Positions 221 through 17,522 of a DNA stretch of 64,000 bases are shown here, in pieces (positions within the stretch are counted from its first letter, which is position 1; the number at the start of each line of letters is the position of its first letter). The notes beneath the pieces are model-generated. The model searched no databases, was not told the DNA's origin, and saw nothing but the letters and a program-made list of their open reading frames with translations. The position numbers and the translations under genes are program-made. Origin of the DNA: a virus; IMG/VR virus record IMGVR_UViG_3300028800_000001, positions 263,296 through 327,295 of that record. One strand, 5' to 3'.

Positions 221-240
221 ATTTCTTTCTTCTTTCTTTT

Positions 241-1029
241 TTAACAATTGTGGAAGCGATACGGGATCGAAGCCGCATCTAGCTTATCAGTGATTGCTTT
301 GGTTGCATACTTACGCTCCATGAAGACCACTTCTTCAATGTGCTTCACGCGTAACCCCTTGTGATACTGCACCTCTGGATAGGAACGCACCTGCTGCACA
401 CTGGTATAGGAGAGGACGGTGTTGAGGTAACTGGTATCCACTGCTCGGTGATCAGGCGCGGCTACTGGCATTGCCACCAGTTCCATATAGCCACCAAGAG
501 ATGCCTTTCCCAGGCTGTCATCAAACGTAAAGGTCGCTTTACGAGCCACTACATCACGCTTGAACTTTACGGCGATTTGGCCGTACATGCCAACGCTATC
601 ACGGCTTCCTCCCAGCTCACCGTCTGGACTATTGGTCATATATCCGTAGACCGGACGTTTGGTTGGCTCCATATCTTCTGGATAGGAGAACATTGCCAGC
701 TCAAACCTTGCGCGTCCGTCAGGATGATACGAGCCACAAGAGTTCCCTGTTTCAAACTGTGATTTGAAGCGTCCTTCCTCAAGAATCTTTTCGAAGGCCG
801 TAGAACGAACACGCATCCAAAGACCACTTTCGTCTACCAGCTTTTTGACGTGGGCGTCTACCAGCTTTAAAAAAGCTTCAGCCGTGATGCCACGATAATT
901 TGCATGATATTTGACGGTATTCTCAGCATCCTTGTCATAGACGGCCAACATCTTGTCAGAAGGGCGAACATCTTTCAGACGATTGGATGCACCAGGAAAG
1001 CGTTTTGTCGTTGCAACAGCGGTACCCAT
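241..1029 (-). CDS. member of the multi-copy 'GRFKSQFETG / RPxYGY / YPExQxH / GIPY' module family (262 aa), function unknown
   Basis: ORF track. Conserved motifs WMRVRS, GRFKSQFETGNS, RPVYGYMT, YGQIAVKFK, FTFDDSLG, YPEVQYHKG, EVVF, SIPYRF are shared with 1162..2103, 6811..9870 (twice), 12188..13006 and 13223..14170. Strong RBS AAGGAG and an AT-rich promoter lie upstream. Confidence 0.6.
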   Translation of the reverse strand: MGTAVATTKRFPGASNRLKDVRPSDKMLAVYDKDAENTVKYHANYRGITAEAFLKLVDAHVKKLVDESGLWMRVRSTAFEKILEEGRFKSQFETGNSCGSYHPDGRARFELAMFSYPEDMEPTKRPVYGYMTNSPDGELGGSRDSVGMYGQIAVKFKRDVVARKATFTFDDSLGKASLGGYMELVAMPVAAPDHRAVDTSYLNTVLSYTSVQQVRSYPEVQYHKGLRVKHIEEVVFMERKYATKAITDKLDAASIPYRFHNC

Positions 1030-1034
1030 AATAA

Positions 1035-1144
1035 TCTCCTTGAATTAATTATTTTTTTATTTTCCCGCGTAAATCTCTTTACAAAATTAATTATATGCCA
1101 CTAGTATGTAAAAGACAAGCTTTTCTTCTATGAATATTCAGAAA
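1035..1144 (-). promoter_or_regulatory. promoter/leader for 241..1029: TTCTGAATATTCA element, then -35 TTGTCT, N17, -10 TATAAT, then TAATTTT, then AATAATTAATTCAAGGAGA leader
   Basis: Minus-strand reading ...ctgtatttctgaatattcatagaagaaaagcTTGTCTtttacatactagtggcaTATAATtaattttgtaaag...ataaaaaaataattaattcaaggagattattATG. The architecture is almost identical to 39589..39720. Confidence 0.5.
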
Positions 1145-1161
1145 TACAGAAAAGTGGTACT

Positions 1162-2103
1162 TTACGCATGTGGGTTTTTTGCACGATAGGGAATGCCCAA
1201 TGCTTTCAGCTTTTTTACGACTGCGGGTTTGATGTCAGAGCCGTTCTCAAAGACGACTTCAGCAATGTGAGACGTGTTGACGCCACCATGATATTGTGCT
1301 TCAGGGTACGTAGGAACTTCAGCAAGACTGGCATACTTGAGAGGGCTGTCATATTTGAGTGCTGCGAAGCCTGTATGATCTGGCTTTGAGAGTGCAGAAG
1401 GCAGCAAATAGCCAGCAGAAGAGAGTGAATCGTTGCCTGTCCAGGTTGTGTTGTCTTTTATACTCTCTTTTAAGCGTACGGAGACAGAGCCGTACATATC
1501 AACGGTGTCACCCCAACCGGCCTTTGTGGGATCAGCACTTTTGAGGCGTCCATCGCCGTCAGCCGAGAGATAGCCGTATATCGGACGATCTTCATCTTCA
1601 GTTTTCATTTGGTCGTAGCCAAAAAGGTCTTCTTCCACACTAGCGCGATGCCAAACATCCAATAATCCGCCAGATTTACCGGTTTCATGTTGTGATTTGA
1701 AGCGACCATCTGTCAACACCTTGCCGAGTATTTGTGGACGCACTCGTATCCAGGGCTGTGCATCCTTAAAGAGATCAACTGCTTTTTGATCAAGCGCTTT
1801 GGTGTAGTCTTCAACGCTCATGCCAGCTTTGGCTGCTTTAAATGCAAAGACCGTGGCCTTATTGTTGTTATACTTATCAATGATTGCTTGTGGTGGTTTG
1901 AGCTTTTGTAAAATCTTAGGCACAAGGTTATTGGGATGCAGTGGATTCTTCGGTCCTGGCGTTCTGGTGCCATCGCGTGCCACAATCAGGTGCGCTTCTC
2001 CTGCGGTAGAAAAGCGTCCAAGATGATCATGATGTGGGTTGTACTTCTCTTGAAGTTGCAGCACAAGACGTTTAATCAGCCGAATGTCTTTTTGAAAATA
2101 CAT
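1162..2103 (-). CDS. KYNPxH-leader module-family protein (313 aa), function unknown
   Basis: N-terminus LQLQEKYNPHHDHLGRFSTAGEAHLIVARDGTRTPGPKNPLHPNN. Core motifs PWIRVRP, GRFKSQHETGKSGG, LFGY, RPIYGYLS, YGSVSVRLK, TWTGNDSL, YPEAQYHGG, EVVF, GIPYRA. Confidence 0.65.
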   Translation of the reverse strand: MYFQKDIRLIKRLVLQLQEKYNPHHDHLGRFSTAGEAHLIVARDGTRTPGPKNPLHPNNLVPKILQKLKPPQAIIDKYNNNKATVFAFKAAKAGMSVEDYTKALDQKAVDLFKDAQPWIRVRPQILGKVLTDGRFKSQHETGKSGGLLDVWHRASVEEDLFGYDQMKTEDEDRPIYGYLSADGDGRLKSADPTKAGWGDTVDMYGSVSVRLKESIKDNTTWTGNDSLSSAGYLLPSALSKPDHTGFAALKYDSPLKYASLAEVPTYPEAQYHGGVNTSHIAEVVFENGSDIKPAVVKKLKALGIPYRAKNPHA

Positions 2104-2171
2104 ACAAATCTCCAGGCAGAAAAAAGTGTGGTTGCTTTTTATTTTGTGTGAAGATTTGTATGAACGAAGTT

Positions 2172-2444
2172 TTACGAAGCAGGAATGATTTTGACACCTT
2201 TGAGCAATTCTTCTAGCTTGTTTTGGTCACCATCATACTTTTGCCAGGGATCACGTGCTCCCAGCGATACTAAGGGAAGGGGTGGATACAGTGTTTTACT
2301 ATTGAGATCTAACACACACCCATATTTCAGGTCTTTGTTTCCGTGTTCTGGCACGTCGGCTGAGAGGACATAAAGATTGGGATCGTCAGGATGCGATGCA
2401 ATGATTGTTTGTTTTCCCATTGGGGGTTTCTCCTTACTATGCAA
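2172..2444 (-). CDS. small partner-family protein (90 aa) upstream of module-family gene 1162..2103
   Basis: KTLYPPLPLVSLGARDPWQKYDGDQNKLEELLKG matches the 11896..12174, 13008..13220 and 1..220 products. Confidence 0.5.
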   Translation of the reverse strand: MHSKEKPPMGKQTIIASHPDDPNLYVLSADVPEHGNKDLKYGCVLDLNSKTLYPPLPLVSLGARDPWQKYDGDQNKLEELLKGVKIIPAS

Positions 2445-2883
2445 CTTTCTTTACTACTACTAATAACAAATTTTTGAGTGCCAAAATTTCTGCATCCTGT
2501 GCTTCAAGATGCTTTTTTAGCTCTTCATTTTCATGAAAGATCTTGAGCGTGGTTTGATACGTTTCTTCCGCTTGCAATTGCTGATGTCTTCCTAACACGT
2601 CTTGCCCGACCGATAAAATTGATAAGGCAACTAATTGGATGAATGTCTGGCTTGTCCACTGCACATACTGATTGGCGGTTGCATGAAAACCAGGAAAGCC
2701 AAGGATGGCAAGAAATACAAAGAAGTAAGCACACCACATGTTGCTGAGCACATTGGTTACAAAAACCGCCACACGTTGATTGAAGCCACCTGCTTTGCGT
2801 TCTAATGCTTGCAACACATTGACGTTACGCACTTTGTGTGGGTGTTCTTTGTGTTCATATAAAGTTACTTTGTGATCACTCAT
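2437..2883 (-). CDS. membrane protein with 2 TM segments and an N-terminal coiled coil (148 aa), possibly lysis- or virion-associated
   Basis: Hydrophobic stretches FFVFLAILGFPGF and FIQLVALSILSVG; heptad-like N-terminus. Overlaps the stop of the upstream gene. Confidence 0.4.
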   Translation of the reverse strand: MSDHKVTLYEHKEHPHKVRNVNVLQALERKAGGFNQRVAVFVTNVLSNMWCAYFFVFLAILGFPGFHATANQYVQWTSQTFIQLVALSILSVGQDVLGRHQQLQAEETYQTTLKIFHENEELKKHLEAQDAEILALKNLLLVVVKKVA

Positions 2884-2896
2884 CGCTTCCTACTTC

Positions 2897-4234
2897 TTAC
2901 GAATAATAAAAGGTCACACCAGGGCAGTTGGCTACCCCATTGGAAACAATGCCTACGGAAGCACGACCACCTCCACCAATGCTATAAATGCTGCCAACTG
3001 TAGCATTGGCTGGAATAGAAAGCAGCTTTGTTCCACTATTGGTGGTGGCATTGTCATAGATATCAAGCTGCGCGGTTCCGGTCGTTGTCACTACTGCACT
3101 CCAAAGATAGCCAGGAGTGCCTTTGACCACCACATTACCTGCGGTATTGGCAGCTTGCGCAGCGTTCGCCGTCGCTCCAGCCGTGAGCCATGGATTCGTA
3201 TTTTGTGTATTTCCAGGCTGCACTGTCCAGGTTCCTGCTTGCGCACTTTGCATCCCACCAGGAGCAGAACTACTGGTGTAGAGCTCTAGTGTCGCGTTTG
3301 CGGTGCCGCTGGTATACGCCGTCATGCGCACACGAAAGTAGCGAAACGTCACCGCTCGTTCATAGATGACACTCACTGTATTGGTAGTAGTTGAGAGTAG
3401 TGAGCCACTGGTAACATTGGTCATGAGCACATTGACAAAAGCAGCGCCATCATTAGAACCTTGAAATGTGAGTGTTCCTGAATAGGCACTAGAACTAATA
3501 TGAATACTCAGCCATTTATACGCACTGACATCTGTAGAGGGAACCAGATCAGCATTGAGTGATGCGGCGCTCAGCCCTGTTTGTTCAGTAAAGTTTCCTC
3601 GTACTGCCTGTGAACCAGCGGCGTCTATCATTGCTTTATTTGTGCCAGCGCTATCAACCACAGTGACTCCACCGACAAGATTGCTTCCAGCAGGAAGGCT
3701 AGAGAGCAAACTAATATCACCGGTTGCAGCGCTTGCATTTAAGGTTACCGTGAGTGTTTCTGTACTTCCAAGCACACTTGCACGCACACGTATCTTTGTC
3801 AGCCCTGCACAATTTCCTCCTAGCTCCAACGGGCCAGGGCCAACAATGCTTTGCACTGATGTGCTGGTCAAAGAGCCGCCCACTTTTATCCCTTTGGCGA
3901 TCCAGTTTGTGCCATCGACACTGCCATCGACCACGATTGTTGTTGCAGAAGTAAAAGTGCTCAGTGCCACAATTTCTGCTTTCCAGCTTCCTTGACCAGC
4001 ACCAAGAGAAAGGACAACGGTGCCACCAGCAATCGGTGTTTGCTGCGTGCTTTGTGCAGCAGTAATCGTACCGCTTACGCTGAGATCGCTCGTGCTACTG
4101 TAAAGTGGGTTGACAGCAACTCCCAACGCATTATCAGACGTATCCACAAGCACTGTTGGGTGCACAATCATTACCGTACTGTTCGGGCCGGTGTCCACGC
4201 CTGGGACGGTTGGCTCTGTTTGATTAATAGGCAT
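2897..4234 (-). CDS. tail fibre / receptor-binding-like protein (445 aa), rich in T/S/G/A/V
   Basis: The N-terminal 45 aa MPINQTEPTVPGVDTGPNSTVMIVHPTVLVDTSDNALGVAVNPLY are near-identical to the N-terminus of 5370..5822. The rest is a low-complexity Thr/Ser/Gly/Ala beta-rich sequence typical of fibres. Confidence 0.6.
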   Translation of the reverse strand: MPINQTEPTVPGVDTGPNSTVMIVHPTVLVDTSDNALGVAVNPLYSSTSDLSVSGTITAAQSTQQTPIAGGTVVLSLGAGQGSWKAEIVALSTFTSATTIVVDGSVDGTNWIAKGIKVGGSLTSTSVQSIVGPGPLELGGNCAGLTKIRVRASVLGSTETLTVTLNASAATGDISLLSSLPAGSNLVGGVTVVDSAGTNKAMIDAAGSQAVRGNFTEQTGLSAASLNADLVPSTDVSAYKWLSIHISSSAYSGTLTFQGSNDGAAFVNVLMTNVTSGSLLSTTTNTVSVIYERAVTFRYFRVRMTAYTSGTANATLELYTSSSAPGGMQSAQAGTWTVQPGNTQNTNPWLTAGATANAAQAANTAGNVVVKGTPGYLWSAVVTTTGTAQLDIYDNATTNSGTKLLSIPANATVGSIYSIGGGGRASVGIVSNGVANCPGVTFYYS

Positions 4235-5368
4235 CTATTGTATCCTTCCACTGGTGTGCCGCATTTCCCTGATATAAGGAGAGCCCACCACTGCTTTATA
4301 GAGTGAGTTGAGAAAGAAGTTCAGCCAGAGATTTTGATAGGCTACGTAGCCTGCGGGAAGTGTGGGATGAATATTGTCCACATCAATTAAGCTTTGATGC
4401 GTAGAAAAATACGCATAGAGATCAGGGCCAAGAATGATGGACGGAAAACTGGCTTTGAGTGTCAAGATCTTGGTATTAATTGTAGGCGCATTCGCCAGTA
4501 AATTCGTCGTATTGCCCCAACAAATTGTCTTTGGTAATACCACCGTTTTCCCAGCACCAATCACGGCATTGATCATGGTGGTCATGTTACTGATAAAATT
4601 CGTGACGTACGTTCCGCCCTGGTTTGCATCATTGGTACCGTAGAGGAGTCCCACATATTTACCAGGAAAGAGTGCAAGCCACGTCGCAATATTGGCCGCG
4701 CCTTCGACTGCCGTAAACCCACCAATGCCGCCATCCTCCATCAAAGGAAAATTGCTGACCTGGGCATTGATTTGTGCAGGGAGTGTGGTATCGGTGTGCA
4801 AAAAACCTTGTTGCGCAATAGAGTCGCCATAAAAGATCCAATCATCAGCCAGCCCATTTGCTTTATGCACATCCATATTGATCTGCACATTATTGTTAGA
4901 AACCGATCCATTGATTGCAGTGATGCGAATGCGCACCCATTTGTACCCAGTGAGATTCACACTATGCTGACGGCTGTGATAGACGTTTCCGGTTACCGTC
5001 GCAAGCGTTATCCATCCACTTGAGGGTAAACTTCCACCGGCTGCACTATTGGCATCAATCGTGTAAGCAGCAGGAACGTTATAGGAATTATTGCTAATCA
5101 AGGTCGGATCATAGGCACCCGTTGAGGGATCGTTATACCAGACCACAACAGCCGTCGTGAGACTACTCACACCAGAAAGATCATAGGCCAGATACACGGC
5201 TTGCGTCAGCGTGCCACTGTCTGTATTTCCTGTGGGTGCTGTGAGGCAACGCCAATAATTGCCATACGTGCTGTCGTTGGCTTGCGAGGCTGGAAACGCA
5301 CCTGAAAAGTCATCATTGGTATAGGCAGGCACACCACGTGAGATCAGGGGCATTGGAGCTATCGTCAT
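4235..5368 (-). CDS. SGNH/GDSL-type hydrolase (esterase/deacetylase) with an N-terminal carbohydrate-binding-like region, tail-associated (377 aa)
   Basis: Block I FYGDSIAQQG (GDS), block III LLYGTNDA (GxND), block V DVDNIHPT (DxxH). Its start is 2 nt from the stop of 5370..5822. Confidence 0.65.
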   Translation of the reverse strand: MTIAPMPLISRGVPAYTNDDFSGAFPASQANDSTYGNYWRCLTAPTGNTDSGTLTQAVYLAYDLSGVSSLTTAVVVWYNDPSTGAYDPTLISNNSYNVPAAYTIDANSAAGGSLPSSGWITLATVTGNVYHSRQHSVNLTGYKWVRIRITAINGSVSNNNVQINMDVHKANGLADDWIFYGDSIAQQGFLHTDTTLPAQINAQVSNFPLMEDGGIGGFTAVEGAANIATWLALFPGKYVGLLYGTNDANQGGTYVTNFISNMTTMINAVIGAGKTVVLPKTICWGNTTNLLANAPTINTKILTLKASFPSIILGPDLYAYFSTHQSLIDVDNIHPTLPAGYVAYQNLWLNFFLNSLYKAVVGSPYIREMRHTSGRIQ

Positions 5369-5369
5369 A

Positions 5370-5822
5370 TTAATTCCAAGCCCTGACTACAATATTGCTC
5401 GCGCTTGTTCCATTGACGTTGCTAATGCCTGGAGTATAGAGATGCAGCGCTGTTACCTGCACATCCAAAAATAGCGTTTGTCCAGCAGCGAGTACTGGGC
5501 TTCCTGCGGTAGCTGTAACATCTAAGTCCCATTGGATATTGCTAGCCGTGTTATTTTGCACCATCAAATGTGAGATAACGGTGGTGCCAGCGGCTCCCCA
5601 TTTAAAACTATAATCAGTGGTAGCCGCCGTTGCCGCGCCATTAGAGGCGTAGGCTGCAACGTAGCCTGATTGGACGGTTTGTTCAACAAAGAGAGGGTTG
5701 GCAACAATCCCAAAGGCATTATCAGAGGTATCTACAAGCACGCTTGGATGCACAATCATCGTGGTGCTATTGGGGCCAGTATCGACACCAGGAACGGTTG
5801 GTTCAGTTTGGTTGAGTGGCAT
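5370..5822 (-). CDS. tail fibre N-terminal anchor-domain protein (150 aa), paralogous to the N-terminus of 2897..4234
   Basis: MPLNQTEPTVPGVDTGPNSTTMIVHPSVLVDTSDNAFGIVANPLF. It abuts the SGNH hydrolase gene, so the pair may be a split or frameshifted fibre-enzyme fusion. Confidence 0.55.
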   Translation of the reverse strand: MPLNQTEPTVPGVDTGPNSTTMIVHPSVLVDTSDNAFGIVANPLFVEQTVQSGYVAAYASNGAATAATTDYSFKWGAAGTTVISHLMVQNNTASNIQWDLDVTATAGSPVLAAGQTLFLDVQVTALHLYTPGISNVNGTSASNIVVRAWN

Positions 5823-5896
5823 TGTTTTCTCCAGTACAAATCATTGCAACAGAAATGCTATTTTTGTTTGTACTGAAGAATTTAGGAGAAATACAG

Positions 5897-6814
5897 TTAT
5901 TTTTGTTCGTGGCCTTGCAGGGCAAATGCAGTGCGATCTTCCCCAATGCAGAGCCAGAGATTTTCAAACAAGAGTGCTTCGGCAGGAACACTCATTGTTG
6001 GAAAAGCAGCATCTTTGTCAATATACGCTAAAGTGCAGTGTGGTGTAAAGCCATGTGTGTTGTCAATAGGAACAGGCAGAGACGTTCGAAGCTGTTCACG
6101 CCACTCTGCTATCCCTGGAAGGTCTACAGAGGCGTAAAACGGCAGCGTAGCGCTCTCTGTGGGGGTGTTTGTGAAGCACCCGATCCCTGAGACAATGCCA
6201 TGTACCGGAACCGCGTTTGTCGCATAGTCACCGATTGCTTTTTTGAGCTGTGCGGAAAGGGCATCAGGAACATTCTCAGCGCTTCCTAGTATCATCAAAG
6301 TGACATGCAGCTCTTGTGGCTCACATTTCCCTTCACAGTCCAGTGCTATTTTTTGTGCGGCATCTGGCTCCAGATAAAATGCCACCATGATTGGCAAGGC
6401 CGACACAGGTTTAGGTTGCTCTGGTGTTTCTTCTTTGCGTAGCCACAGCGTCTTTAAAAAAGAAACATGCTCTTCGTTGGCGCGAAAGATTGGCGTCTGC
6501 AAAAAGTCTTTGACAGCTATATCGTGTGCTGCAAGATAGCCAATTAATTGTTCTTCATTCTTGACAGGCAACGTCCATGTCGTCTCTTCAAAGATGCTTT
6601 TCTTCTTTGCAGGTTCTTCATCTGAAAGGGTTGCGCGCTCCTCTTCTGGGAGATCATCAAGATTTTCACAAGGCAGCACACGATTCAAAAAATCTTCACG
6701 TGCTTCATCAGTCAATTGGTGCCGTTGCAAAAACTTGGCAACGCGGCGTGAGAGATCAGGTGACATATTGTCAGGTACACTGCTTTTTGCACTATCGTCT
6801 TTGAGTATTTTCAC
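5897..6814 (-). CDS. 2H phosphoesterase superfamily protein (LigT / cyclic phosphodiesterase-like) with an acidic N-terminal extension (305 aa)
   Basis: Two H-x-T-x motifs at the expected spacing: ELHVTLMILG (around aa 170) and FTPHCTLAYI (around aa 262). Confidence 0.6.
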   Translation of the reverse strand: MKILKDDSAKSSVPDNMSPDLSRRVAKFLQRHQLTDEAREDFLNRVLPCENLDDLPEEERATLSDEEPAKKKSIFEETTWTLPVKNEEQLIGYLAAHDIAVKDFLQTPIFRANEEHVSFLKTLWLRKEETPEQPKPVSALPIMVAFYLEPDAAQKIALDCEGKCEPQELHVTLMILGSAENVPDALSAQLKKAIGDYATNAVPVHGIVSGIGCFTNTPTESATLPFYASVDLPGIAEWREQLRTSLPVPIDNTHGFTPHCTLAYIDKDAAFPTMSVPAEALLFENLWLCIGEDRTAFALQGHEQK

Positions 6815-9800
6815 AAAGTGTCTCCATTCAAAATGGTTTTGCCTACACGGGTTGCTGTTCTATTTAAAACTACCAGAAAGTCAGCACGTTTATTGATCGA
6901 ATCTACATGAGAGCGATCAACATAAATGGCATCATAGCCCTTCATTGCGGCGTAGCGACCAGGATCGTTGGCAAGATCAAAGAGCCGATCAATGCGGCGT
7001 GACTCCGTATACTTCCCAGCATCATCCAAGGCTTTGCCCCGTGTACGCAAATCATTCTTGTAGTCAATCCACTCATTGATTAAACGTCCCTTCTCAATTG
7101 CGGTGGTATTTTTGAGTACGGACATATGCAGCACATCATCGCCATAAGTAGCGGCCACATGAGACGCACTATATCGGTCAGATACTCCTTCTGTGGTAAG
7201 CGCGGTATAGGTTCCGTTGCCATAGACGCCAAGTCCTGCAAAATAGTGCCCACTTTGATAGCTTGCAGCATAGCCCAGGCCGTCAGAGGGATCACCACCA
7301 TCATCCACACCGCGATAGAGCTCAGCCTCACCGTCTTTAATGTGCTGCGCAAGCACATTATCTTCAACCACATGTGGAGGGCCATCAAACCCCTGTGCTT
7401 TATAGATTTCCTGTAAGCAGGCGTCGGCATCCGTGGCGCTACTGCTTCCTGGGATTGGGCCTTTGCCTGTATCCATATAGTTTTTGACGTAGGGAATATC
7501 TTCAGGGTTGCTATATTTGGCTTCCGTCTTCTGAAATTCCTGGTTATCAGGGTGTTTCGGTCCTTTCTCGCGGGTACCATCAGCATGCACAAGCAGGTGT
7601 GCATTTTCTGTCGTGGTAAATTTCCCTACGTGATCATGCGCAGGGTTGTACTTTTCTTCAAACTGCTCAACACTTTTTGTTCCTGAGACGCGGTAAGAAA
7701 TGCCTTTGGCTTTGAGTTGTGCCTCAAGCGGTGGTGTAAGCTCATAATCATTATGAAACACAATTTCTGCAATAGTTGAGGTGTTTAGACCACCATGAAA
7801 TTGTGCCTCTGGATAGCCGCGTACATCACTCACGTTTTGGTAGGTCAGTGGATCTGGACCATGCACACTAAAATTGGTATGATCAGGATGCAGCATGCTT
7901 CCTGGCAAGAGATAGCCACCCATACCAAGTGAGTCATCACCTGTCCAGGTGGTTTTTTGCTTCACCTCTGGTTTGAAGCGAACCGCAACGCCTCCATATT
8001 CATCAACAGAGTCGAACATGCCATGCCGCGTCTGTCTCAGGCTTGCGCCGTCAGGATGATCGCTTAGATAGCCGTAAAGTGGACGCTGCTCTTTGGCAAG
8101 ATCGTCTGGATAGCCAAAGAGATCATGTTCTGCTTCAGAACGTGAATCGTGATCCATAATTCCCGCAGAGGTATTGGTTTCAAATTGCGACTTGAAGCGT
8201 TCATCATCCAATATCTTTGAAAGAATTGTTGGGCGTACCCGCATCCAAGGTTCTGCATTCTTGAGCAGTTCCACGGCTTTGTCATCAACGGCTTTGTTGT
8301 ACTCTTCAGCCGTCATGTTATGCGTCTGCGCATGCTTTTCAGCGAACGCTGCACCTTGTATGTCATATTTTTTGAGGACGGCGTCTGGTGGACGCACCTG
8401 TTCTAAGATATCTTTTTTCTGATTATCAGGATGCGCCGGTCCTTTTTCAGTGGTACCATCACGATGCACTAAAAGGTGGGCATTTTCGGTGGTCGTAAAT
8501 TGTCCATTGTGCCCGTGGGCTGGATTATATTTCGCTTCGCCTGTGAGCAGCTCTTGATCACGTGCGGATAAATCTTCTAGCGATTGCACACCCATCAAAC
8601 GATTGAAAAAGTCCTGACGCTCTGCGAGTGTCCAAGAGGCCGCAACAGGGCCAGCAAGAAACTTTTCTACCAGTGGTACTAGATCAGGGGCAAGCGTATC
8701 AGGGATTGTGTTAATGGCTTGATTTTCTGCATCAGTGATTTGATCTTTATGTTCTGGGGTATCATCATCTATTTCCTCGTCATTTTGCTTCTCCTCTGGT
8801 AAATACAATGAAAGATCAAGTGGTTCATGCATCTTGCCGTGGCTGCGATGCCCTGGCTTTTTGCGCGGCACAGGGATAACGCCATGAGCAGGTTTGCCGT
8901 GAGGAGCCGCATGTGGTTTTGCAGCAGGTGCGCCGTGAGCAGCAGCAGGTTTCTTGAGTGGCTTCACGCTCGTTGGCACTGCTGGATGCTTTGGTGGCAT
9001 TCCACCGGTTTGTGACTCAGGGTGTGCCGTAATCTTGAAAAAGTCTTCCCAGGTGGGATTCTTCATTCCAGCTAGCTGATGCAAAATCTCAAAACGTTTT
9101 GCGAAACCTAACGCTGCTTCATCATTGGCTGCATACTCTTTTGAGAGGATCAGGGCTTTGGTTTCTTTGGTGAGAAACTTTCCCAGGATGCCATGATCAA
9201 TGCTGTTGCGCAGAAAACTTTTTCCAATGACTTTCATCAGAAAGCTATGCGACTGGATTGCAATATCTTTTTTGACGAGTGCCGAAGAAAGTTGTGTCAG
9301 GTTAATCTTGCCGGTCTTTTGATTGAGGGTATAGTGTCCAGATTGATCTTGTTTCATGCCAAGAATATATTCCAACATGCCGACTTTGGTCACCTGATCA
9401 GGGGGCATTTTCTCCATTGCCTCGGTTGCCGTCTTATCATCCAGGGGAGTGCTTTTTACATCCTCAGAGACCACTACGGGCTCTTTGTCCACTGTTCCAC
9501 TGTGGACTACAGGCACCGTATCAGAGGCTCCTACCAGATCTGCAATGCGGCTTGCACCGGTCTGTGAAAAGGCAATGCGCGTGCTACCAGTGGGCACAAT
9601 ACGATACGTCTTGCCATTAATGTTGGCGGTATAGACGCCGTCAGCCCCTCTGGTCATTGCCCCTTTGTCGGAGAGGGCTTTCGCAATGTGGGCAGGCATG
9701 GTGGTGAGCACATCAGCGTGCACACCGCCTGCGCCATCATCAGCACCGATGAATTGTCCGGTCGTAGTGCTGTGATTACGGTTATATTTTTCTTCAGGAA

Positions 9801-9870
9801 GATAGAGTGTAAGGTCAGGTTTCTCCTGTTCTTCTATCTCTTTACGAAAGAGAGCATAATGATACTTCAT
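6811..9870 (-). CDS. 1019-aa polyvalent protein: N-terminal unique region, His/Pro/Ala/Lys-rich linker, two tandem KYNPxH-leader + GRFKSQFETN modules, C-terminal ~230-aa domain
   Basis: Repeated LYLPEEK(Y/Q)N, EAKYNPAHGHNGQFTTTENAHLLVHRDGT and EEKYNPAHDHVGKFTTTENAHLLVHADGT. One complete core module (WMRVRP, ERFKSQFETNTSAG, RPLYGYLS, TWTGDDSL, YPEAQFHGG, GISYRV). C-terminus has ELYRGVDDG...GVYGNGTY. Low-complexity linker KPAAAHGAPAAKPHAAPHGKPAHG. Confidence 0.7.
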   Translation of the reverse strand: MKYHYALFRKEIEEQEKPDLTLYLPEEKYNRNHSTTTGQFIGADDGAGGVHADVLTTMPAHIAKALSDKGAMTRGADGVYTANINGKTYRIVPTGSTRIAFSQTGASRIADLVGASDTVPVVHSGTVDKEPVVVSEDVKSTPLDDKTATEAMEKMPPDQVTKVGMLEYILGMKQDQSGHYTLNQKTGKINLTQLSSALVKKDIAIQSHSFLMKVIGKSFLRNSIDHGILGKFLTKETKALILSKEYAANDEAALGFAKRFEILHQLAGMKNPTWEDFFKITAHPESQTGGMPPKHPAVPTSVKPLKKPAAAHGAPAAKPHAAPHGKPAHGVIPVPRKKPGHRSHGKMHEPLDLSLYLPEEKQNDEEIDDDTPEHKDQITDAENQAINTIPDTLAPDLVPLVEKFLAGPVAASWTLAERQDFFNRLMGVQSLEDLSARDQELLTGEAKYNPAHGHNGQFTTTENAHLLVHRDGTTEKGPAHPDNQKKDILEQVRPPDAVLKKYDIQGAAFAEKHAQTHNMTAEEYNKAVDDKAVELLKNAEPWMRVRPTILSKILDDERFKSQFETNTSAGIMDHDSRSEAEHDLFGYPDDLAKEQRPLYGYLSDHPDGASLRQTRHGMFDSVDEYGGVAVRFKPEVKQKTTWTGDDSLGMGGYLLPGSMLHPDHTNFSVHGPDPLTYQNVSDVRGYPEAQFHGGLNTSTIAEIVFHNDYELTPPLEAQLKAKGISYRVSGTKSVEQFEEKYNPAHDHVGKFTTTENAHLLVHADGTREKGPKHPDNQEFQKTEAKYSNPEDIPYVKNYMDTGKGPIPGSSSATDADACLQEIYKAQGFDGPPHVVEDNVLAQHIKDGEAELYRGVDDGGDPSDGLGYAASYQSGHYFAGLGVYGNGTYTALTTEGVSDRYSASHVAATYGDDVLHMSVLKNTTAIEKGRLINEWIDYKNDLRTRGKALDDAGKYTESRRIDRLFDLANDPGRYAAMKGYDAIYVDRSHVDSINKRADFLVVLNRTATRVGKTILNGDTL

Positions 9871-10493
9871 TCGGACTCCTCAACTTCAGCCAGAACGCGC
9901 TCCAGCGCAATTAATTGTTCATTGGAAAGTTTTTCCAGATCAATTGTTAGCTTGTTATGGGTGACGCTTTCTGAGAGCCCTGGAATGTTCTCCATCGCAA
10001 TTTGTTCCGTTGCTGCACCACGTGCCACACGCTCCAGGGAGGAAGCTTCTTTAAAGAGCATGACAGCAGCAGTGGCTCCAAAACGTTTCTCTTTAATCAG
10101 ATCAGTGATTTGCTGTGCTGCTTTAATTGCCATACCAGAGCCGAGTGTGGCATGATTCTCATTCATCTTCTCAATTTCAGCATCACGCTTGCGCTTTTTC
10201 TCTTCTAATTGCTCTTTATCATAGCTACGCACCTGCTCTTGCCAGCCATAGGCACTGCTCCAAATGCCTATTTGCTTATGTGAAGAGCTAATTAATTTTT
10301 CTCTCTTCTCGTCCGTGACCTGTGGTGGAAAAACGCCACTGGCTAGCAGCCGTTCTTGTTCAGCACGCAGCCGCTCCTCCACCAATTGTTCAGCAAGCCT
10401 GCGCAAGCTTCTGGTGTAGCCTTGTTGTTTATAAAGTTCTAATGCATAGAGTGAACGGGTGGTTTCTTCACCCTTTGGCAGTTTACGCGCCAT
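9867..10493 (-). CDS. coiled-coil protein (208 aa), possibly scaffold-like
   Basis: E/K/R/L/Q-rich heptad-like sequence throughout. Start overlaps the stop of 6811..9870 by 4 nt. Confidence 0.45.
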   Translation of the reverse strand: MARKLPKGEETTRSLYALELYKQQGYTRSLRRLAEQLVEERLRAEQERLLASGVFPPQVTDEKREKLISSSHKQIGIWSSAYGWQEQVRSYDKEQLEEKKRKRDAEIEKMNENHATLGSGMAIKAAQQITDLIKEKRFGATAAVMLFKEASSLERVARGAATEQIAMENIPGLSESVTHNKLTIDLEKLSNEQLIALERVLAEVEESE

Positions 10494-10610
10494 ACTTGTC
10501 TCCCCAAGAGATAGTTTTCTTTTTCGTATTTGGTATTTCTCTTTGAGAAGATTTGGAGATTTGATGGGGGATTAATTTTTGAGGTTGTTTCTTTTTCTAA
10601 GTATTTTTTA

Positions 10611-10850
10611 TTACATGGTCTCAATAGAGAGTTCGTTGTCCTTTTTTTTAATTTCTTTTGCCCATAAGACACTGGTGAGCGTTTGCAACAAATAGAGGAG
10701 AATCTTTTCATCAGGAAGATGTGTTTCCTCTTTTGCACCAGCAATAACGTTGCGTAATTCTTCCTGTTTTTCTCCTGTATAGGTAAACACCGATGCAGCA
10801 AAAGAAATAGTTCCGTATACCGTTGGCCCGTAGCCAATTTCTAGCGTCAT
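10611..10850 (-). CDS. hypothetical protein (79 aa)
   Basis: ORF track only. Confidence 0.3.
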   Translation of the reverse strand: MTLEIGYGPTVYGTISFAASVFTYTGEKQEELRNVIAGAKEETHLPDEKILLYLLQTLTSVLWAKEIKKKDNELSIETM

Positions 10851-10865
10851 ATCATCTCCTTTTTT

Positions 10866-11837
10866 TTAATCAGTAAAGAAGGAAGCAGGTTTTCTTTTTT
10901 TGGCGTCCCTACTCTCCCATGGAATTGTTGCAATGACCGCATTCAATGCATTCATCGTCGGATCTTTTTTGCTTTTACTCAGTAGTGCAATTGCATGCAA
11001 ACGTAACTCCAATGCTTTGATCGTACGATCATTCGCTCCAGTGTAACGTGCCATCCGTACAATTTCGTCAGCATGCTCTACAAAAGATCTGAGTACTTTT
11101 TTATTAAATGGCTTCTCGTTTGGATCAGTAGAGCGGGTACCTGTCGCATCTTTAAAAGGGGGCGTGGTGTAATTCGTTGCAATCTTTGACTCAAAGTCAT
11201 TGGTAATTTCATCAGTGCGCAAAGCAAGTCCCATATCGATAAGTTTTAATCCCTTCTCGCCTTTTTGTGTTGAATCAACTAAATAGTTCCCTAAATGACG
11301 ATCACGATCATGAACGACATACTCATAGAGACGAAGTTTCGCATAATTCTCTATACTTAATTTGCTCACCGCAGCCACGCGCTGTTCTTTTGAGAGTGCA
11401 AGCATTGGTGTTCCCTCAACCCACGGCTGGACAGTAACATCTTGTCCATTACGTGCCATTTTTTGCACTGGAAGAGTAAAGTCGCTCACTCCAAGCACGT
11501 CAGCCGTCTTCGATGAAAAAACTGCACGTTCTTCCTGATTGGAAATGCCCATTGCGTCTGCTTCATCGCTGTTCTTTTTTACCAAATAGTTTTTTCCAGC
11601 AATGGTTGTCTTGTAGGTTGCATTCAAACTATCGCCACGCCCAAATTGCTGCAATGATGCTGTTTGAAGTTGCCCCTGGCTAGGAAAGCGTTTATCACTA
11701 TTTGGAGTCATATCTAGAGCCGAAGGCGATGACGCAAATCGACCATCTTCCTCATCGTGATAATAATTGTACTTGCGCTGATAGGCATATCTTCGTAACC
11801 GTACGGCTCGCGGCATCTTACATCTCTCCTGATACAA
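10866..11837 (-). CDS. protein kinase-like (HxDxxxxN...DMG) domain protein with a KYN-type N-terminal leader (323 aa)
   Basis: N-terminus LRRYAYQRKYNYYHDEEDGRF resembles the KYNPxHxxxGxF leader. Catalytic-loop-like VHDRDRHLGNYLV and DFG-like LIDMGLA. AT-rich promoter upstream. Confidence 0.55.
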   Translation of the reverse strand: MYQERCKMPRAVRLRRYAYQRKYNYYHDEEDGRFASSPSALDMTPNSDKRFPSQGQLQTASLQQFGRGDSLNATYKTTIAGKNYLVKKNSDEADAMGISNQEERAVFSSKTADVLGVSDFTLPVQKMARNGQDVTVQPWVEGTPMLALSKEQRVAAVSKLSIENYAKLRLYEYVVHDRDRHLGNYLVDSTQKGEKGLKLIDMGLALRTDEITNDFESKIATNYTTPPFKDATGTRSTDPNEKPFNKKVLRSFVEHADEIVRMARYTGANDRTIKALELRLHAIALLSKSKKDPTMNALNAVIATIPWESRDAKKRKPASFFTD

Positions 11838-11840
11838 AAG

Positions 11841-11898
11841 GATAATTAATTATTTATTTTGTGAGTGCGAGACATTTCTTTTTAAAATTAATTATTTA
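11841..11898 (-). promoter_or_regulatory. AT-rich bipartite promoter/leader for 10866..11837 (minus: TAGACA-N18-AATAAT-TAATTTT ... ATAAATAATTAATTATCC-RBS)
   Basis: Same TAATTAATTTT / AATAATTAATT paired elements as at 1.04, 17.46, 25.89 and 39.60 kb. The promoter overlaps the stop of 11896..12174. Confidence 0.4.
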
Positions 11899-12174
11899 CA
11901 TCGTTTCGATATCATGTCTATCTTCTTTTTTCTCAGCCAAACTATCGGCAACAGGGGTTGCATCCTTTAGCCATTCTTGTAGTACGTCTTGAGAGTCGGT
12001 GTAAGGTTCCCACTCTTGTCTGCTTTGCAGTGTCGCAAGGGCATTGACTGGATACAGTTTTTTCTCATCACTGTAGTAGATTTGCCCCAGGTGTTGTGTA
12101 CGTCCATAGAGCATTCCTGTGCCCAGGTCAAGCAGGTAATACCCATCTTCGTCACGTCCAAGTATTTTTTTCAT
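11896..12174 (-). CDS. small partner-family protein (92 aa) upstream of kinase-like gene
   Basis: MKKILGRDEDGYYLLDLGTGMLYGRTQHLGQIYYSDEKKLYPVNALATLQSRQEWEPYTDSQDVLQEWLKDA is a paralogue of 13008..13220, 2172..2444 and 1..220. Confidence 0.5.
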   Translation of the reverse strand: MKKILGRDEDGYYLLDLGTGMLYGRTQHLGQIYYSDEKKLYPVNALATLQSRQEWEPYTDSQDVLQEWLKDATPVADSLAEKKEDRHDIETM

Positions 12175-12187: not shown

Positions 12188-13006
12188 TTAAAGCTTTACC
12201 GTAAATGGAATGCCTGCGCTGTTCAGTGCCTTTTTTATAGGGGCTGTTGGTGCTTTCCCATGAAAGGTAACACTTTTGATATCGCTTGTTGAGACTCCAC
12301 CATGCACCTGTGCTTCCATATATTCATTTGCCAGATCACGTGGTCGCAAGGGATCAATACCGTTATAGAGTGGATAAATGCGACTATCAGGATGCGTCAC
12401 TGGTTGTGGAATGACGCTTTCGTAGTGTCCACCAGAGGTCATTGCCAGTGAATCACCATAGGTCATAGTAGCACGATCTCGTGTTTCTGGCTTTAGTTCA
12501 ACAGCTACGTTCCCATATTGAGAAACATCTGCATCAGTATTGTCTCCATGAGTATCTTTTGAGAGATATCCATAAATGGGACGGTTCTCCACCCCTGCTT
12601 TTGCTTCATCAAATCCAAAGGCACCAGATTCTAGTTTATCTCTTGAATCTTTGGCAACGCTTCCGCCACTCTTGTTTGTCTCGAATTGACTTTTGAAGCG
12701 ACCGCCATCCAATATTTTTTGGAGTGCTGACGGTTTTACTCGTACAAAGAGTCCAGTATCTTTGACTGCATCTTGCGCTTGCTTATCAAGCGTTGCTTTG
12801 TAGGCATCAGGTGAGAGACCATGACGCTCCCCAAAGATTTCGTAACGCAGATGGGTGTTGTCAGCAAACTCAGAGGCCCAGTGCTCTGTAGGATGTACTC
12901 CCAGGCTTTCTAGTGTCTTGCCGGAACCACCCTCAGAAATAAATTCACCATTTGCATCGCTATGCGCATGATTGTATTTCCTTTGGACTGCGTAGCGAAA
13001 CCGCAT
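12188..13006 (-). CDS. KYN-leader module-family protein (start adjusted to MRFRYAVQRKYNHAHSD), function unknown
   Basis: The ORF-track start at 13168 overlaps the upstream gene. The internal Met at 13006 abuts the stop of 13008..13220. Core motifs FVRVKP, GRFKSQFETNKSGG, RPIYGYLS, YGNVAVELK, MTYGDSL, YMEAQVHGG, GIPFTV. Confidence 0.55.
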   Translation of the reverse strand: MRFRYAVQRKYNHAHSDANGEFISEGGSGKTLESLGVHPTEHWASEFADNTHLRYEIFGERHGLSPDAYKATLDKQAQDAVKDTGLFVRVKPSALQKILDGGRFKSQFETNKSGGSVAKDSRDKLESGAFGFDEAKAGVENRPIYGYLSKDTHGDNTDADVSQYGNVAVELKPETRDRATMTYGDSLAMTSGGHYESVIPQPVTHPDSRIYPLYNGIDPLRPRDLANEYMEAQVHGGVSTSDIKSVTFHGKAPTAPIKKALNSAGIPFTVKL

Positions 13007-13007
13007 A

Positions 13008-13220
13008 TTACTCTCCAACCTTCTTTGCCGTCTTGAGCCACTCATTGACTTTTTCTTGTACACCATCATAGGGCTCCCAGGCAGTTCCACGCGTGAGCAT
13101 CGTGGCAATGGATTGTGGTGGATACAAGAGATGTTTCTCTTGATCATAAATCTGGCCCATTTTTTCATCTTCAGTCAGGATGAAGCGTACTCCATCATCA
13201 GAGACAGCAAATATTTTCAT
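13008..13220 (-). CDS. small partner-family protein (70 aa)
   Basis: MKIFAVSDDGVRFILTEDEKMGQIYDQEKHLLYPPQSIATMLTRGTAWEPYDGVQEKVNEWLKTAKK. Confidence 0.5.
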   Translation of the reverse strand: MKIFAVSDDGVRFILTEDEKMGQIYDQEKHLLYPPQSIATMLTRGTAWEPYDGVQEKVNEWLKTAKKVGE

Positions 13221-13222
13221 GG

Positions 13223-14170
13223 CTATGATGCTCCTGCTACGCTATACGGAATATTTTCTCGTTGTAATAATTTAGTCAGCGCCGCGCTTGGTGCTTTACT
13301 ATGAAAGACAACGTGTGCAATGTGACTTTTTGAGACACCGCCATGCATTTGTGTTTCGGTGTACACATCTTTGATGAGTGAGGTATTTCCTTCTGGACTG
13401 TTATAATTGCTTGCTGCGGTCCCTGTTGGCTTGAGTACTGGATTAGGGAGCATTCGTGGTGCATCCTCACTTCCTCCTTCGTCAAGCGAATCGCCAAGTG
13501 TAAACGTACTTTTTGCCCTCACTTCAGGTTTGAAGCGGATTGCCACATCACCGTAAGCTGAGGCAAAGTTTTGTTCGCCATTTGCACCATCACTTAAATA
13601 CCCGTAAATTGGTCGATCTTCTGACTTGGTCTTTTGATCATAGCCAAACATCTGCTCTTCTTGTTCAGCTCGACTCTCAAGATAGTTGGTCAGTTTGATC
13701 TTATTGGCTCCAATAGCCGCGCCGGTCTTATTGGTTTCGAAGGCACTCTTAAAACGACCATCAGTAAGAATGCCTTGCAGTCCTTTGCTTGATGTTCGTG
13801 TCCATAACTCTCCAGGCGTTACCAGGGCAACAATGTGTGCATCTTCGCGTGCTTTGAGTGCATCAGCCGTGATAGGTTTTCCTAAATCCGTCCATGAGTC
13901 AGCAAAGTTCTTGAGTCGCTGATTGTACGTAGCTTCAAAATTCTTTGTCCAGGCGGCACTCGGATGCACATTTTTCAGCACCGGATCAAGTTGATTGTCA
14001 GGATGCTTTGGCCCCAGCGTTCGCGTTCCATCACGTGCGACAGAGATATGAGCTTCGCCAGCCGTTGAGAACTGTCCCAAATGATTGTGATGTGGGTTAT
14101 ATTTTTGTGCCCAGGCATGTGCCAACATCCGCATCCGTTTCATACGATCATAGAGAAAAATGTCTTCCAT
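13223..14170 (-). CDS. KYNPxH-leader module-family protein (315 aa)
   Basis: QKYNPHHNHLGQFSTAGEAHISVARDGTRTLGPKHPDNQ, then GRFKSAFETNKTGA, RPIYGYLS, YGDVAIRFK, FTLGDSL, YTETQMHGG, HVVF, NIPYSV. Confidence 0.65.
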   Translation of the reverse strand: MEDIFLYDRMKRMRMLAHAWAQKYNPHHNHLGQFSTAGEAHISVARDGTRTLGPKHPDNQLDPVLKNVHPSAAWTKNFEATYNQRLKNFADSWTDLGKPITADALKAREDAHIVALVTPGELWTRTSSKGLQGILTDGRFKSAFETNKTGAAIGANKIKLTNYLESRAEQEEQMFGYDQKTKSEDRPIYGYLSDGANGEQNFASAYGDVAIRFKPEVRAKSTFTLGDSLDEGGSEDAPRMLPNPVLKPTGTAASNYNSPEGNTSLIKDVYTETQMHGGVSKSHIAHVVFHSKAPSAALTKLLQRENIPYSVAGAS

Positions 14171-17440: not shown

Positions 17441-17462
17441 CTTCTCTTCCTCGGTGCGCAGT

Positions 17463-17522
17463 GAATTAATTATTTTTTCACGCTCTTCTCTTTTTTATTT
17501 TTTAAAAATAATTATTTATTTC
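17463..17522 (-). promoter_or_regulatory. AT-rich bipartite promoter/leader for ParB-like copy 1 (TAAATAATTATTTTT ... AAAAATAATTAATTCA-RBS GAGGAAG)
   Basis: Same paired AATTAATT elements as the four other copies. Confidence 0.4.

Follow-up and report, generated by a model that had tools for sequence, protein, structure and literature searches.

A candidate polyvalent effector of an uncultured tailed phage, with a SopF-type ADP-ribosyltransferase cassette and a repeated leader

In a 64-kb stretch of viral DNA (the window, here meaning the whole stretch that was analyzed), we describe a 1019-aa gene that, in our estimate at roughly six chances in ten, encodes a polyvalent effector from a large tailed phage not yet in culture: a chassis of pseudokinase, linker and ADP-ribosyltransferase-fold (ART-fold) domain with an R-Y-D site, plus a SopF-type cassette, tagged by leaders, packaged and injected. 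The protein fits the polyvalent-protein concept put forward for phages and conjugative elements by Iyer, Burroughs, Anand, de Souza and Aravind in 2017 (PMC5512222). A single SopF-type (DUF3626) cassette is inserted between two leader copies within the chassis, and it is the leader tag that is the most interesting part of the protein.

The gene and its neighborhood

The gene occupies positions 6811..9870 as one ATG-to-stop open reading frame (ORF) of 1019 aa on the minus strand, as do all features given below; the plus-strand frame is riddled with stops. The ORF proposed in the initial annotation is real, and every sequence motif quoted there could be located in the translation. The start codon overlaps the stop of a translationally coupled upstream gene (ATGA), a 208-aa, terminase-small-subunit-like gene at 9867..10493 (phrog_6299, E 8.9e-14); this call has a single PHROG match as its basis, and tblastn against phages returned nothing. 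The order of the 208-aa gene and the homologue of the 1019-aa gene is kept in L002 and L008, and in L001 a 491-aa ADPrib_exo_Tox gene intervenes between the two. Downstream, with synteny kept, lies a LigT/2H phosphoesterase (5897..6814; Pfam 2_5_RNA_ligase2, 38.2 bits).

Several paralogues of the gene's modules share the window: a leader-tagged kinase-like paralogue with intact motifs (VKK, HDRDRHLGN, IDMG) at 10866..11837, two leader-tagged single-module DUF3626 paralogues at 12188..14170 (12188-13168 and 13223-14170), and two further DUF3626 paralogues at 241..2103, the one at 1162-2103 with the leader and the one at 241-1029 without. The window also encodes an endolysin, a phage-type helicase and Tet/JBP-ParB-ADDT DNA-hypermodification genes, which identifies the DNA as phage-encoded; cultured phages gave distant matches only, at no more than about 33% protein identity. 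Within the 64-kb window we recognized no gene for a portal, MuF, major capsid or prohead protease protein, and no T4 gp21-like protease among the approximately 40 window ORFs scanned.

Domain architecture

The protein opens with the peptide MKYHYALFRKEIEEQEK and a first D-L-T-L-Y-L-P-E-E box (aa 1-27; 9790..9870), much as the orthologue P0003 does (MNYRYATFRKHIQQQEK). The N-terminal region had been thought unique; it is in fact paralogous to the kinase-like protein at 10866-11837, though diverged from it, and aa ~57-282 (9025..9702) adopt a PI3/PI4-kinase-like or HipA-like kinase fold in a model built from a 4-sequence alignment (pLDDT 68). In all three orthologues the ATP-binding Lys, the catalytic-loop DRHxxN and the metal-binding IDxG motifs have become RIVP, KQDQSGH and LTQL, respectively. 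Unlike PI4K type II alpha, Helicobacter pylori CtkA and the HipA-family kinases, the phage domain thus lacks the ATP-binding Lys, the D and N of the catalytic loop and the metal-binding Asp, and we predict a catalytically dead, PI4K-II/CtkA-like pseudokinase.

A His/Pro/Ala/Lys-rich low-complexity linker follows (aa 284-348; 8827..9021), with KPAAAHGAPAAKPHAAPHGKPAHG at aa 307 and a composition over aa 286-355, which include the first box residues, of P14 A10 K9 H8 G7 in 70 residues. The linker differs among orthologues and ends in a conserved PRKKPGHR; no DNA tandem repeat was found in it, and a 1018-aa metagenomic copy of the protein (P0001) is identical except for one Ala fewer there. Next come a second box, D-L-S-L-Y-L-P-E-E-K (aa 349-360; 8791..8826), kept in P0002 (DLSLYLPEKK) and P0003 (DFSLYLPEKV), and an acidic stretch with a ~60-aa spacer module (aa 361-444; 8539..8790). 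The spacer is also the N-terminus of the downstream LigT/2H protein (blastp of aa 382-445 against aa 6-66 of ORF 5897-6814, E 1.5e-5); the LigT protein of L001 has two copies of it, and P0002 has one.

The cassette itself had been described as one full and one partial module, and a profile search bears this out: built on the four single-module paralogues, the profile hits aa 435-733 (1.5e-145) and aa 737-781 (4.5e-16). Its core, aa 488-733 (7672..8409), is a predicted SopF-type ADP-ribosyltransferase that, judged from sequence, has an intact active site. The Pfam DUF3626 model (PF12294) scores the 1019-aa protein at 23.1 bits, under the cutoff of 27; three paralogues that are 37-48% identical to it score 34.3, 37.3 and 47.7 bits, and all of the 10 larger family members scanned lie above the cutoff. 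DUF3626 is the family of the Salmonella ADP-ribosyltransferase SopF (PMC6682159), whose NAD-binding residues are Y224, Y240 and E325 (PMC11937434). The family profile matches the SopF structure marginally (7dn8_C, E 0.007), and the profile alignment places Y599, Y625 and E688, the predicted NAD-binding residues, in register with those of SopF; all three are invariant or nearly so in 34 sequences. The phage domain probably belongs to the same Pfam family as this type III secretion effector (PDB 7dn8) and has its NAD-binding residues conserved, but sequence similarity at that profile E value is very low, and whereas SopF has a lipid-binding C-terminus and targets the eukaryotic V-ATPase, the phage domain must act on bacterial targets. 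The family is large (4757 cluster representatives), with many multi-copy proteins of 1-6 kaa and with MuF, ADPrib_exo_Tox, Ntox3, LigT or PI3/4-kinase domains as fusion partners.

What is the C-terminal domain? The initial annotation had called for a fold check of the last ~230 aa, and the answer is an ART fold with its split β-sheet (aa 781-1019; 6814..7530). The domain occurs once in the window, in keeping with the earlier remark that the other paralogues lack it, and it carries ELYRGVDDG at aa 850, GVYGNGTYTAL at 881 and YDAIYVDRSHVD at 979. R853 lies at β1, Y888 at β2 and D980 at the start of β5, an arrangement that is neither the canonical H-Y-E nor the R-S-E triad; the nearest described residue set is the H-Y-D of Tox-ART-HYD2 (PMC5512222). 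Among 54 diverse sequences of this un-named family the Arg is invariant, and the Tyr, the Asp, QGFDG and LNRTA are conserved in at least 90%. The ART-PolyVal (PF18760)/Tox-ART-HYD2 profile gives no Pfam match in the 1019-aa protein, the PF18760 profile matches one of the 54 family members (E 0.004), and Foldseek against ART-PolyVal-like phage proteins did no better than E 5.6e-3. Structure comparison matched the domain best to a cyanophage A4 pre-ejectosome protein (PDB 9k3a chain B, 1071 aa), which from its length is probably A4 gp28. The match is confined to one domain; the A4 paper assigns no function to the third α+β domain of gp28, and gp28 has lytic transglycosylase and M23 domains, both of which are absent from the 1019-aa protein.

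The protein therefore combines a kinase fold, a DUF3626 ART and a second ART-fold domain, and the earlier description of it as polyvalent and modular is borne out by its orthologues, among which modules are shuffled. All three share a chassis of pseudokinase, His/Pro-rich linker with DLSLYLPE box and C-terminal ART-fold domain; in P0002 the chassis bears two C3-like ARTs, and in P0003 it bears a DUF3626 at the N-terminus.

The leader

The initial annotation treated LYLPEEKYN as a unit. It resolves into two separately conserved elements: a D-L-S/T-L-Y-L-P-E box, which all three orthologues keep behind the linker, with or without a leader after it, and the leader proper, K-Y-N-x-x-H-x-x-x-G-x-F, with copies at aa 28-40, 447-458 and 740-751. 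The reported strings are present, with LYLPEEK at aa 22 and 355, EEKYN at 26 and 738, EEKQN at 359 and EQFE at 735, so that EEK(Y/Q)N does follow LYLPE twice and EQFE once; however, the EEKQN after the second LYLPE starts no true leader, and the genuine second leader comes 87 aa later. Leader 1 (KYNRNHSTTTGQFIG, aa 28-42; 9745..9789) is predicted to be disordered (pLDDT < 50 over model residues 1-31). Leader 2 with its extension (KYNPAHGHNGQF TTTENAHLLVHRDGTTEKGPAHPDNQ, aa 445-487; 8410..8538) heads the cassette, and leader 3 with its extension (aa 738-780; 7531..7659), the former partial module, is identical to it at 34 of 47 aa and 94 of 141 nt.

The leader pattern has seven matches in the window, three of them in the 1019-aa protein, and none in any of 200 codon shuffles, and is thus far beyond chance. 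It heads unrelated folds, in five genes of the window and ten of L001, and its flavor is uniform within one phage and different between phages, with versions such as KFNDxHDEHGRF (KFNDxHDEHGRFGSGG), WREQDHPRDxRGRF and NPNQPRDxxGRW/F elsewhere. These properties suggest an idea that we raise tentatively, at odds somewhat against it: the leader may be a portable address tag. The head machinery of a given phage, be it portal/MuF, scaffold or prohead protease, would read that phage's own flavor and in this way load, and perhaps cut apart, a set of unrelated effectors numbering 5 to 10 or more; the shuffling of cassettes into polyvalent proteins would use the tag as its junction. If true, the leader would be a widespread capsid-targeting system, analogous but unrelated to the CTS of T4; no prior description of a leader-type system of this kind was found in the searchable literature.

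Packaged effector or something else?

Homologues supply the link to the virion. Two phage proteins, gp9 of Mycobacterium phage Tierra and the minor capsid protein of Streptococcus phage MissE2, are DUF3626-MuF fusions whose genes follow the portal gene. In L003, L007, L013 and L016, homologues of the C-terminal domain are encoded either behind a portal or MuF gene or in the interval from the terminase to the major-capsid gene. In cyanophage P-SS2, ORF030 (1499 aa) joins MuF, a Zeta toxin and a distantly related domain of the C-terminal family (87.9 bits), and this protein was found in purified virions by mass spectrometry with 96.5 peptides (PMC2784084). The terminase-small-subunit-like gene, the one packaging-type gene next to the ORF, and the structural match to an A4 pre-ejectosome protein point the same way. 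The 1019-aa protein has no Pfam match to MuF (PF04233) at E <= 1, and we regard it as probably a MuF-less polyvalent effector that is packaged in the virion.

How might such an effector work? Made along with packaging genes, the protein would be taken into the procapsid, the disordered leader heading each cassette acting as an address tag, a processing site or both. Whole or cut, it would be ejected with the DNA; the SopF-like domain could then use NAD+ to ADP-ribosylate host targets, the R-Y-D domain may provide a second NAD+-dependent activity, and the pseudokinase may be a scaffold or target binder.

Could the protein instead be a host-takeover or anti-defense polyprotein that stays in the cytoplasm and is never packaged, its leader being an inherited N-terminal segment or a cassette recombination junction? 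The absence of recognizable structural core genes nearby in the window, the DNA-modification and nucleic-acid enzymes among the neighbors, the leaderless DUF3626 paralogue at 241-1029 and the precedent of T4 ModA and ModB, which are unpackaged phage ARTs (PMC5512222), all speak for this reading. We nevertheless consider it unlikely, as simple shared ancestry leaves unexplained a leader that sits on unrelated folds in phage-specific flavors, and for both ART-type domains, homologues recur in fusion with MuF or beside MuF and portal genes, one of them in a proven virion protein. Somewhat less probable still is that the constant part serves chiefly in head structure or ejection, in the role of MuF or of a podovirus core protein, with a non-catalytic R-Y-D "ART" and the DUF3626 cassette as the only effector. 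The invariant Arg and the strongly conserved Tyr, Asp, QGFDG and LNRTA fall at ART NAD+-binding positions, a pattern that enzymes typically show. Related H-Y-D ARTs frequently serve as effectors in polyvalent proteins (PMC5512222), and in P-SS2 the C-terminal-family domain coexists with a separate MuF domain.

A phage-borne polymorphic toxin, directed against competing bacteria rather than the phage's own host as proposed for MuF toxins, seems to us very improbable. MuF-toxin families do bear the same kinds of C-terminal domains (PMC5576092), and the cassette-like variability recalls polymorphic toxin loci; on the other hand, the gene has no MuF or secretion domain, a non-systematic look noticed no pattern of small adjacent immunity-type genes, and the presence of five to ten leader-tagged genes in each phage rather suggests a takeover set with several targets.

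How does the protein compare with known systems? As in the polyvalent proteins of Iyer et al. (PMC5512222), several unrelated effector domains share one polypeptide, ART and kinase domains being typical constituents, smaller nearby ORFs bear the same domains as "cassettes", and architecture varies between relatives. Unlike those proteins, ours has no zincin metallopeptidase, MuF, portal or N4-RNAP module, its ARTs are of the SopF/DUF3626 and R-Y-D types rather than the H-Y-D Tox-ART-HYD2 type, and its kinase is degenerate; a leader repeated per cassette is a feature that we did not find in that paper. It also has cargo domains in common with MuF-effector fusion head proteins: DUF3626 is shared with Tierra and MissE2, and the C-terminal family with P-SS2; but those proteins have an N-terminal MuF and a gene after the portal, whereas the 1019-aa protein has neither MuF nor a visible portal gene nearby. 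T4 Alt, a head-packed and injected phage ART, and the T4 internal proteins, which carry the capsid targeting sequence (CTS) and are cut by gp21 at L/I-x-E, are a further comparison; our protein, too, would be a phage ART that is packed in the head and injected. Like the CTS, the leader is a short N-terminal tag common to otherwise unrelated proteins, which in T4 are packaged (PMC9026906); its sequence is unrelated to that of the CTS, it also occurs internally, at cassette junctions, and no gp21-like protease was identified here. The initial annotation had weakly suggested T4-type cleavage before the leaders: L-P-E is indeed found at aa 24-26 and 357-359, but Q-F-E precedes the third leader and the single-module paralogues have no L/I-x-E site.

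Outlook

Phage-injected effectors are the first phage products that host defenses meet, and to our knowledge those outside of T4, P1 and N4 are largely unexplored. The locus described here offers a branch of the SopF ADP-ribosyltransferase family in bacterial viruses, its predicted active site intact, and a large un-named ART-fold family with an R-Y-D site that takes a head-gene slot in many phages and is present in one proven virion protein. It also offers a short tag, uniform within a phage and differing between phages, at the head of unrelated cargo domains. Should this tag serve as a signal for packaging or processing, sequence alone would suffice to predict which proteins uncultured phages inject, and there would be a general handle for loading foreign proteins into capsids.

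Architecture of the 1019-residue protein

The product of 6811–9870 (minus strand) is, as predicted from sequence, a MuF-less variant that combines a pseudokinase with two non-classical domains of the ADP-ribosyltransferase (ART) type; a MuF domain in the protein itself was rejected for want of a Pfam match to that family. Two of its family assignments are marginal. The gene is a single ATG-to-stop open reading frame of 1019 aa, its first codon overlapping the upstream gene's stop, and the plus-strand frame is stop-rich. All of the strings quoted in the initial annotation are found in the translation: LYLPEEK at residues 22 and 355, EEKYN at 26 and 738, EEKQN at 359, EQFE at 735, the KPAAAHG...KPAHG linker at 307, ELYRGVDDG at 850, GVYGNGTYTAL at 881 and YDAIYVDRSHVD at 979. 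A tandem-repeat search of the linker revealed no DNA repeat, and the linker is compositional. A metagenomic copy of the protein, P0001 (1018 aa), is identical except for one linker alanine, reading KKPAAHG where the window (8900–8960) reads KKPAAAHG.

Four neighboring minus-strand genes (241–1029, 1162–2103, 12188–13168 and 13223–14170) encode proteins with 37–48% identity to residues ~432–730, and because the profile of these four paralogues matches the large protein fully at residues 435–733 (1.5e-145) and partially at 737–781 (4.5e-16), the earlier description, a full module plus a partial one, is borne out. The partial module is merely an extended leader, KYNPAH.H.G.FTTTENAHLLVH.DGT.EKGP.HPDNQ, which is identical to the copy ahead of the full module at 34 of 47 aa and 94 of 141 nt; with DNA identity of only 67%, recent gene conversion between leaders 2 and 3 was rejected. 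The conserved core of the leader, K-Y-N-x-x-H-x-x-x-G-x-F, occurs at residues 28, 447 and 740 and also close to the N-terminus in four other genes; the window thus has seven matches, and 200 codon shuffles produced no match at all. Disorder is predicted for the leader. As for LYLPEEKYN as one punctuating unit, the strings are present, but LYLPE and the K-Y-N leader are separate elements: LYLPE belongs to its own conserved box, D-L/F-S/T-L-Y-L-P-E, which follows the linker in all three orthologues whether or not a leader comes next. The EEKQN that follows the second LYLPE was rejected as a leader, having no H...G.F downstream. Also rejected were [SAG]-x-E sites ahead of the leaders, the type recognized by prohead proteases of giant phages; P3, read from the sequence, is T, Q or K.

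The mechanical open reading frame at 12188–13168 is 326 aa long, and its start is probably an internal Met near 13006, yielding a 272-aa protein that agrees with the called gene in locus L008 and with the protein P0063 and places the leader ~12 aa from the N-terminus. The gene at 241–1029, one of five DUF3626 copies, carries no leader, its open frame being too short for one; its product may be an unpackaged, ModA/ModB-like counterpart.

Predicted domains

The module shared with the paralogues is assigned as a SopF-type ART by marginal matches. The Pfam DUF3626 score of the large protein is 23.1 bits, under the cutoff of 27, and three paralogues exceed that cutoff (34–48 bits). The Salmonella effector SopF carries this DUF3626 domain (PMC6682159); it is an ADP-ribosyltransferase that binds NAD+ through Y224, Y240 and E325 (PMC11937434). 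A 34-sequence profile of the module matches the SopF structure 7dn8_C with an E value of 0.007, and, counted through that alignment, the RPxY, xYG and YxE motifs fall exactly on these three residues; the counterparts in the large protein are Y599, Y625 and E688, all invariant or nearly so. SopF was reached only by this profile, and PDB sequence searches with the whole protein and with a five-paralogue profile found nothing. An exhaustive profile search with the module gave 4757 cluster representatives, 786 of them under 1e-30, and many are 1–6 kaa long with several copies each. All 10 of the larger family members scanned lie above the DUF3626 cutoff and have additional Phage_Mu_F, ADPrib_exo_Tox or Ntox3 domains. 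Among cultured phages, it forms the C-terminal half of MuF proteins whose genes directly follow the one for the portal, as in the "minor capsid protein" of MissE2 and in Tierra gp9, annotated as a "capsid maturation protease and ADP-ribosyltransferase".

The N-terminal region had been considered unique; in fact, residues 20–183 align (pairwise E 4e-6) with the 323-aa product of the neighboring gene at 10866–11837, which has the kinase motifs VKK, HDRDRHLGN and IDMG and a weak PI3_PI4_kinase match. In an alignment with this paralogue and the kinase domain of the protein P0147, the Lys, the DRHxxN loop and the Asp of IDxG are missing from all three orthologues of the large protein, and the region thus reads as a probable pseudokinase. 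Because this domain is 94% identical between the window protein and the orthologue P0002 despite the missing kinase motifs, a conserved non-catalytic role is suggested. Searching a word index for homologues with this domain as the sole query found nothing and missed even the known orthologues, so that its result reflects a limit of the tool.

The C-terminal domain (residues 781–1019) has 56 homologues, mostly stand-alone and without a Pfam domain. R853 is invariant in their alignment, and at least 90% conserved are QGFDG, G-x-G-x-x-G-N-G-T-Y (Y888), G-Y-D-A-I (D980) and L-N-R-T-A. The initial annotation had proposed a fold search with these ~230 residues, and the outcome is an ART fold: the AlphaFold model is confident (pLDDT 88), with R in β1, Y in β2 and D opening β5, and weak profile matches to a diphtheria-toxin homologue, PARP and ART-PolyVal point in the same direction. 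On this model, the domain would represent a second, un-named ART-fold family. Its R-Y-D set is nearest to the H-Y-D site of polyvalent-protein ARTs, yet not identical to it (PMC5512222). The best structural match is a cyanophage A4 pre-ejectosome protein, PDB 9k3a chain B, which we infer from protein length to be gp28; A4 gp28 has an unassigned α+β domain alongside lytic domains (PMC12002296). Matches in BFVD include a 763-aa protein of Bacillus phage SP-15, a Microbacterium phage "capsid maturation protease and MuF-like fusion protein" and ART-PolyVal-like proteins.

Genomic context and virion link

Genes of the C-terminal domain family lie among structural genes in several loci: P0039 after terminase, portal and MuF genes (L003), P0004 after the portal gene (L007), P0016 between terminase and capsid genes (L016), and P0009 upstream of the major capsid gene, after a portal-intein-MuF fusion and the polyvalent protein P0163 (L013). 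Additionally, ORF030 of cyanophage P-SS2 (1499 aa), which also carries MuF and Zeta-toxin domains, matches the family profile with 87.9 bits over residues 1170–1376, and the P-SS2 virion proteome includes ORF030 with an average of 96.5 peptides (PMC2784084); therefore, a member of this family is an experimentally detected virion component.

The orthologues differ in their cassettes. P0002 (1175 aa) consists of two C3-like ADPrib_exo_Tox cassettes, pseudokinase, linker, spacer and C-terminal domain, and P0003 (855 aa) of DUF3626, pseudokinase, linker and C-terminal domain. Relative to P0002, a single DUF3626 cassette is inserted in the window protein, flanked on either side by a leader copy, and a leader stands at every junction. 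The spacer (residues 361–444; 8539–8790, minus strand) is common to the N-terminus of the downstream LigT/2H phosphoesterase (5897–6814, minus strand). The shared ~60-aa module, PDL..V.KFL......T..ER..F.NR.....L.DL, sits in the large protein after the LYLPE box and before leader 2, and the LigT protein of the related locus L001 has two copies. The gene order 208-aa TerS-like, polyvalent, LigT/2H is conserved in L002 and L008, the TerS-like call resting on a single PHROG match (phrog_6299, 8.9e-14); in L001, a 491-aa ADPrib_exo_Tox gene intervenes between the TerS-like and polyvalent genes.

The surrounding phage

The window comes from a novel phage. No match to the gene turned up by megablast among 50,697 phage records or in scans of IMG/VR and GTDB genomes, and a metagenome scan gave two fragments only; the products of neighboring genes find their best protein matches in large or jumbo myoviruses. 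Genes for a portal, capsid or protease did not turn up in the 64-kb window, and of three large ORFs of unknown function searched by tblastn for structural genes, two had no match and one was RecT-like.

A DNA-hypermodification cluster (15383–23190, minus strand) comprises a DPPY methylase-like fragment (15383–15760), two Tet/JBP dioxygenases (15757–16665, 18293–19141), three ParB-like proteins (16607–17440, 17710–18468, 19141–19995), P-loop nucleotide kinase 3 (20097–20669) and the amino acid:DNA transferase ADDT (22285–23190), all on the minus strand; L001 instead has 7-deazaguanine genes (PTPS, radical SAM, GTP cyclohydrolase I). ORFs of 445 and 150 aa (2897–4234 and 5370–5822, minus strand) flank an SGNH/GDSL esterase-like gene (4235–5368, minus strand) and have a common 45-aa N-terminus, 82% identical (MP[IL]NQTEPTVPGVDTGPNST...), found again in L001 at 14779–15165; they look like exchangeable receptor-binding or tail-fiber cassettes on a common anchor. 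The 791-aa product of 33622–35997 (plus strand) has a pro-kumamolisin (sedolisin/S53) activation domain (78.9 bits), a peptidase type unusual in phage, and a phosphodiesterase-like PHROG match in its C-terminal part. An excisionase/HTH-like protein (53600–54664) and an IS-type transposase (56982–57866; phrog_4285, 1.7e-45) are possibly part of an insertion sequence within the phage genome; the region that holds them has lower GC (0.436 at 56–60 kb).

The leader in other phages

L001 has 13 leaders in 10 genes with differing cargo. In L013, the flavor KFND.HDEHGRFGSGG occurs in the portal-MuF fusion, twice in P0163 (ADPrib_exo_Tox, LigT and DUF3626) and in P0009, and in L014, at least 10 genes upstream of the scaffold gene each open with WREQDHPRD.RGRF. 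Of the three NPNQPRDEQGRW-type leaders in P0147, the first precedes a DUF3626 domain and the third a PI3/4-kinase domain. Such leaders are present in 20 of the 56 C-terminal domain homologues. The L013 contig (ENA ERZ27256814, nt 1–8065) encodes, in order, a portal-intein-MuF fusion of >1900 aa, itself bearing the flavor IHDEHGRFGSGGG, then P0163 and the leader-tagged C-terminal domain protein, with the major capsid gene downstream of all three. The L014 array (JGI 3300066478 contig, nt ~580–11990) lies ahead of the Phage_scaffold gene with nearly identical leaders, WRE(Q/R)DHPRDxRGRF, and includes one C-terminal domain homologue and one PI3/4-kinase-like protein.

The leader thus appears to be general across phages and phage-specific in flavor. 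Because it is uniform within a phage, divergent between phages and placed ahead of unrelated folds, its distribution points to a shared partner that recognizes it and that may load or cleave the proteins. Among known systems, the capsid targeting sequence of T4 comes closest (PMC9026906). A literature text search for the motif found no description, and the MuF-toxin paper does not mention it; such absence is weak evidence of novelty.

The initial observation holds with corrections, and its interpretation holds in part: the protein is modular and polyvalent, the fold search proposed for its C-terminus gives an ART fold, and its N-terminal region is not unique. The protein belongs with the polyvalent proteins described by Iyer et al. 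2017 and is compatible with the concept of ARTs packaged in the phage head (PMC9503650), and of all its elements, the leader tag is the one most worth pursuing.
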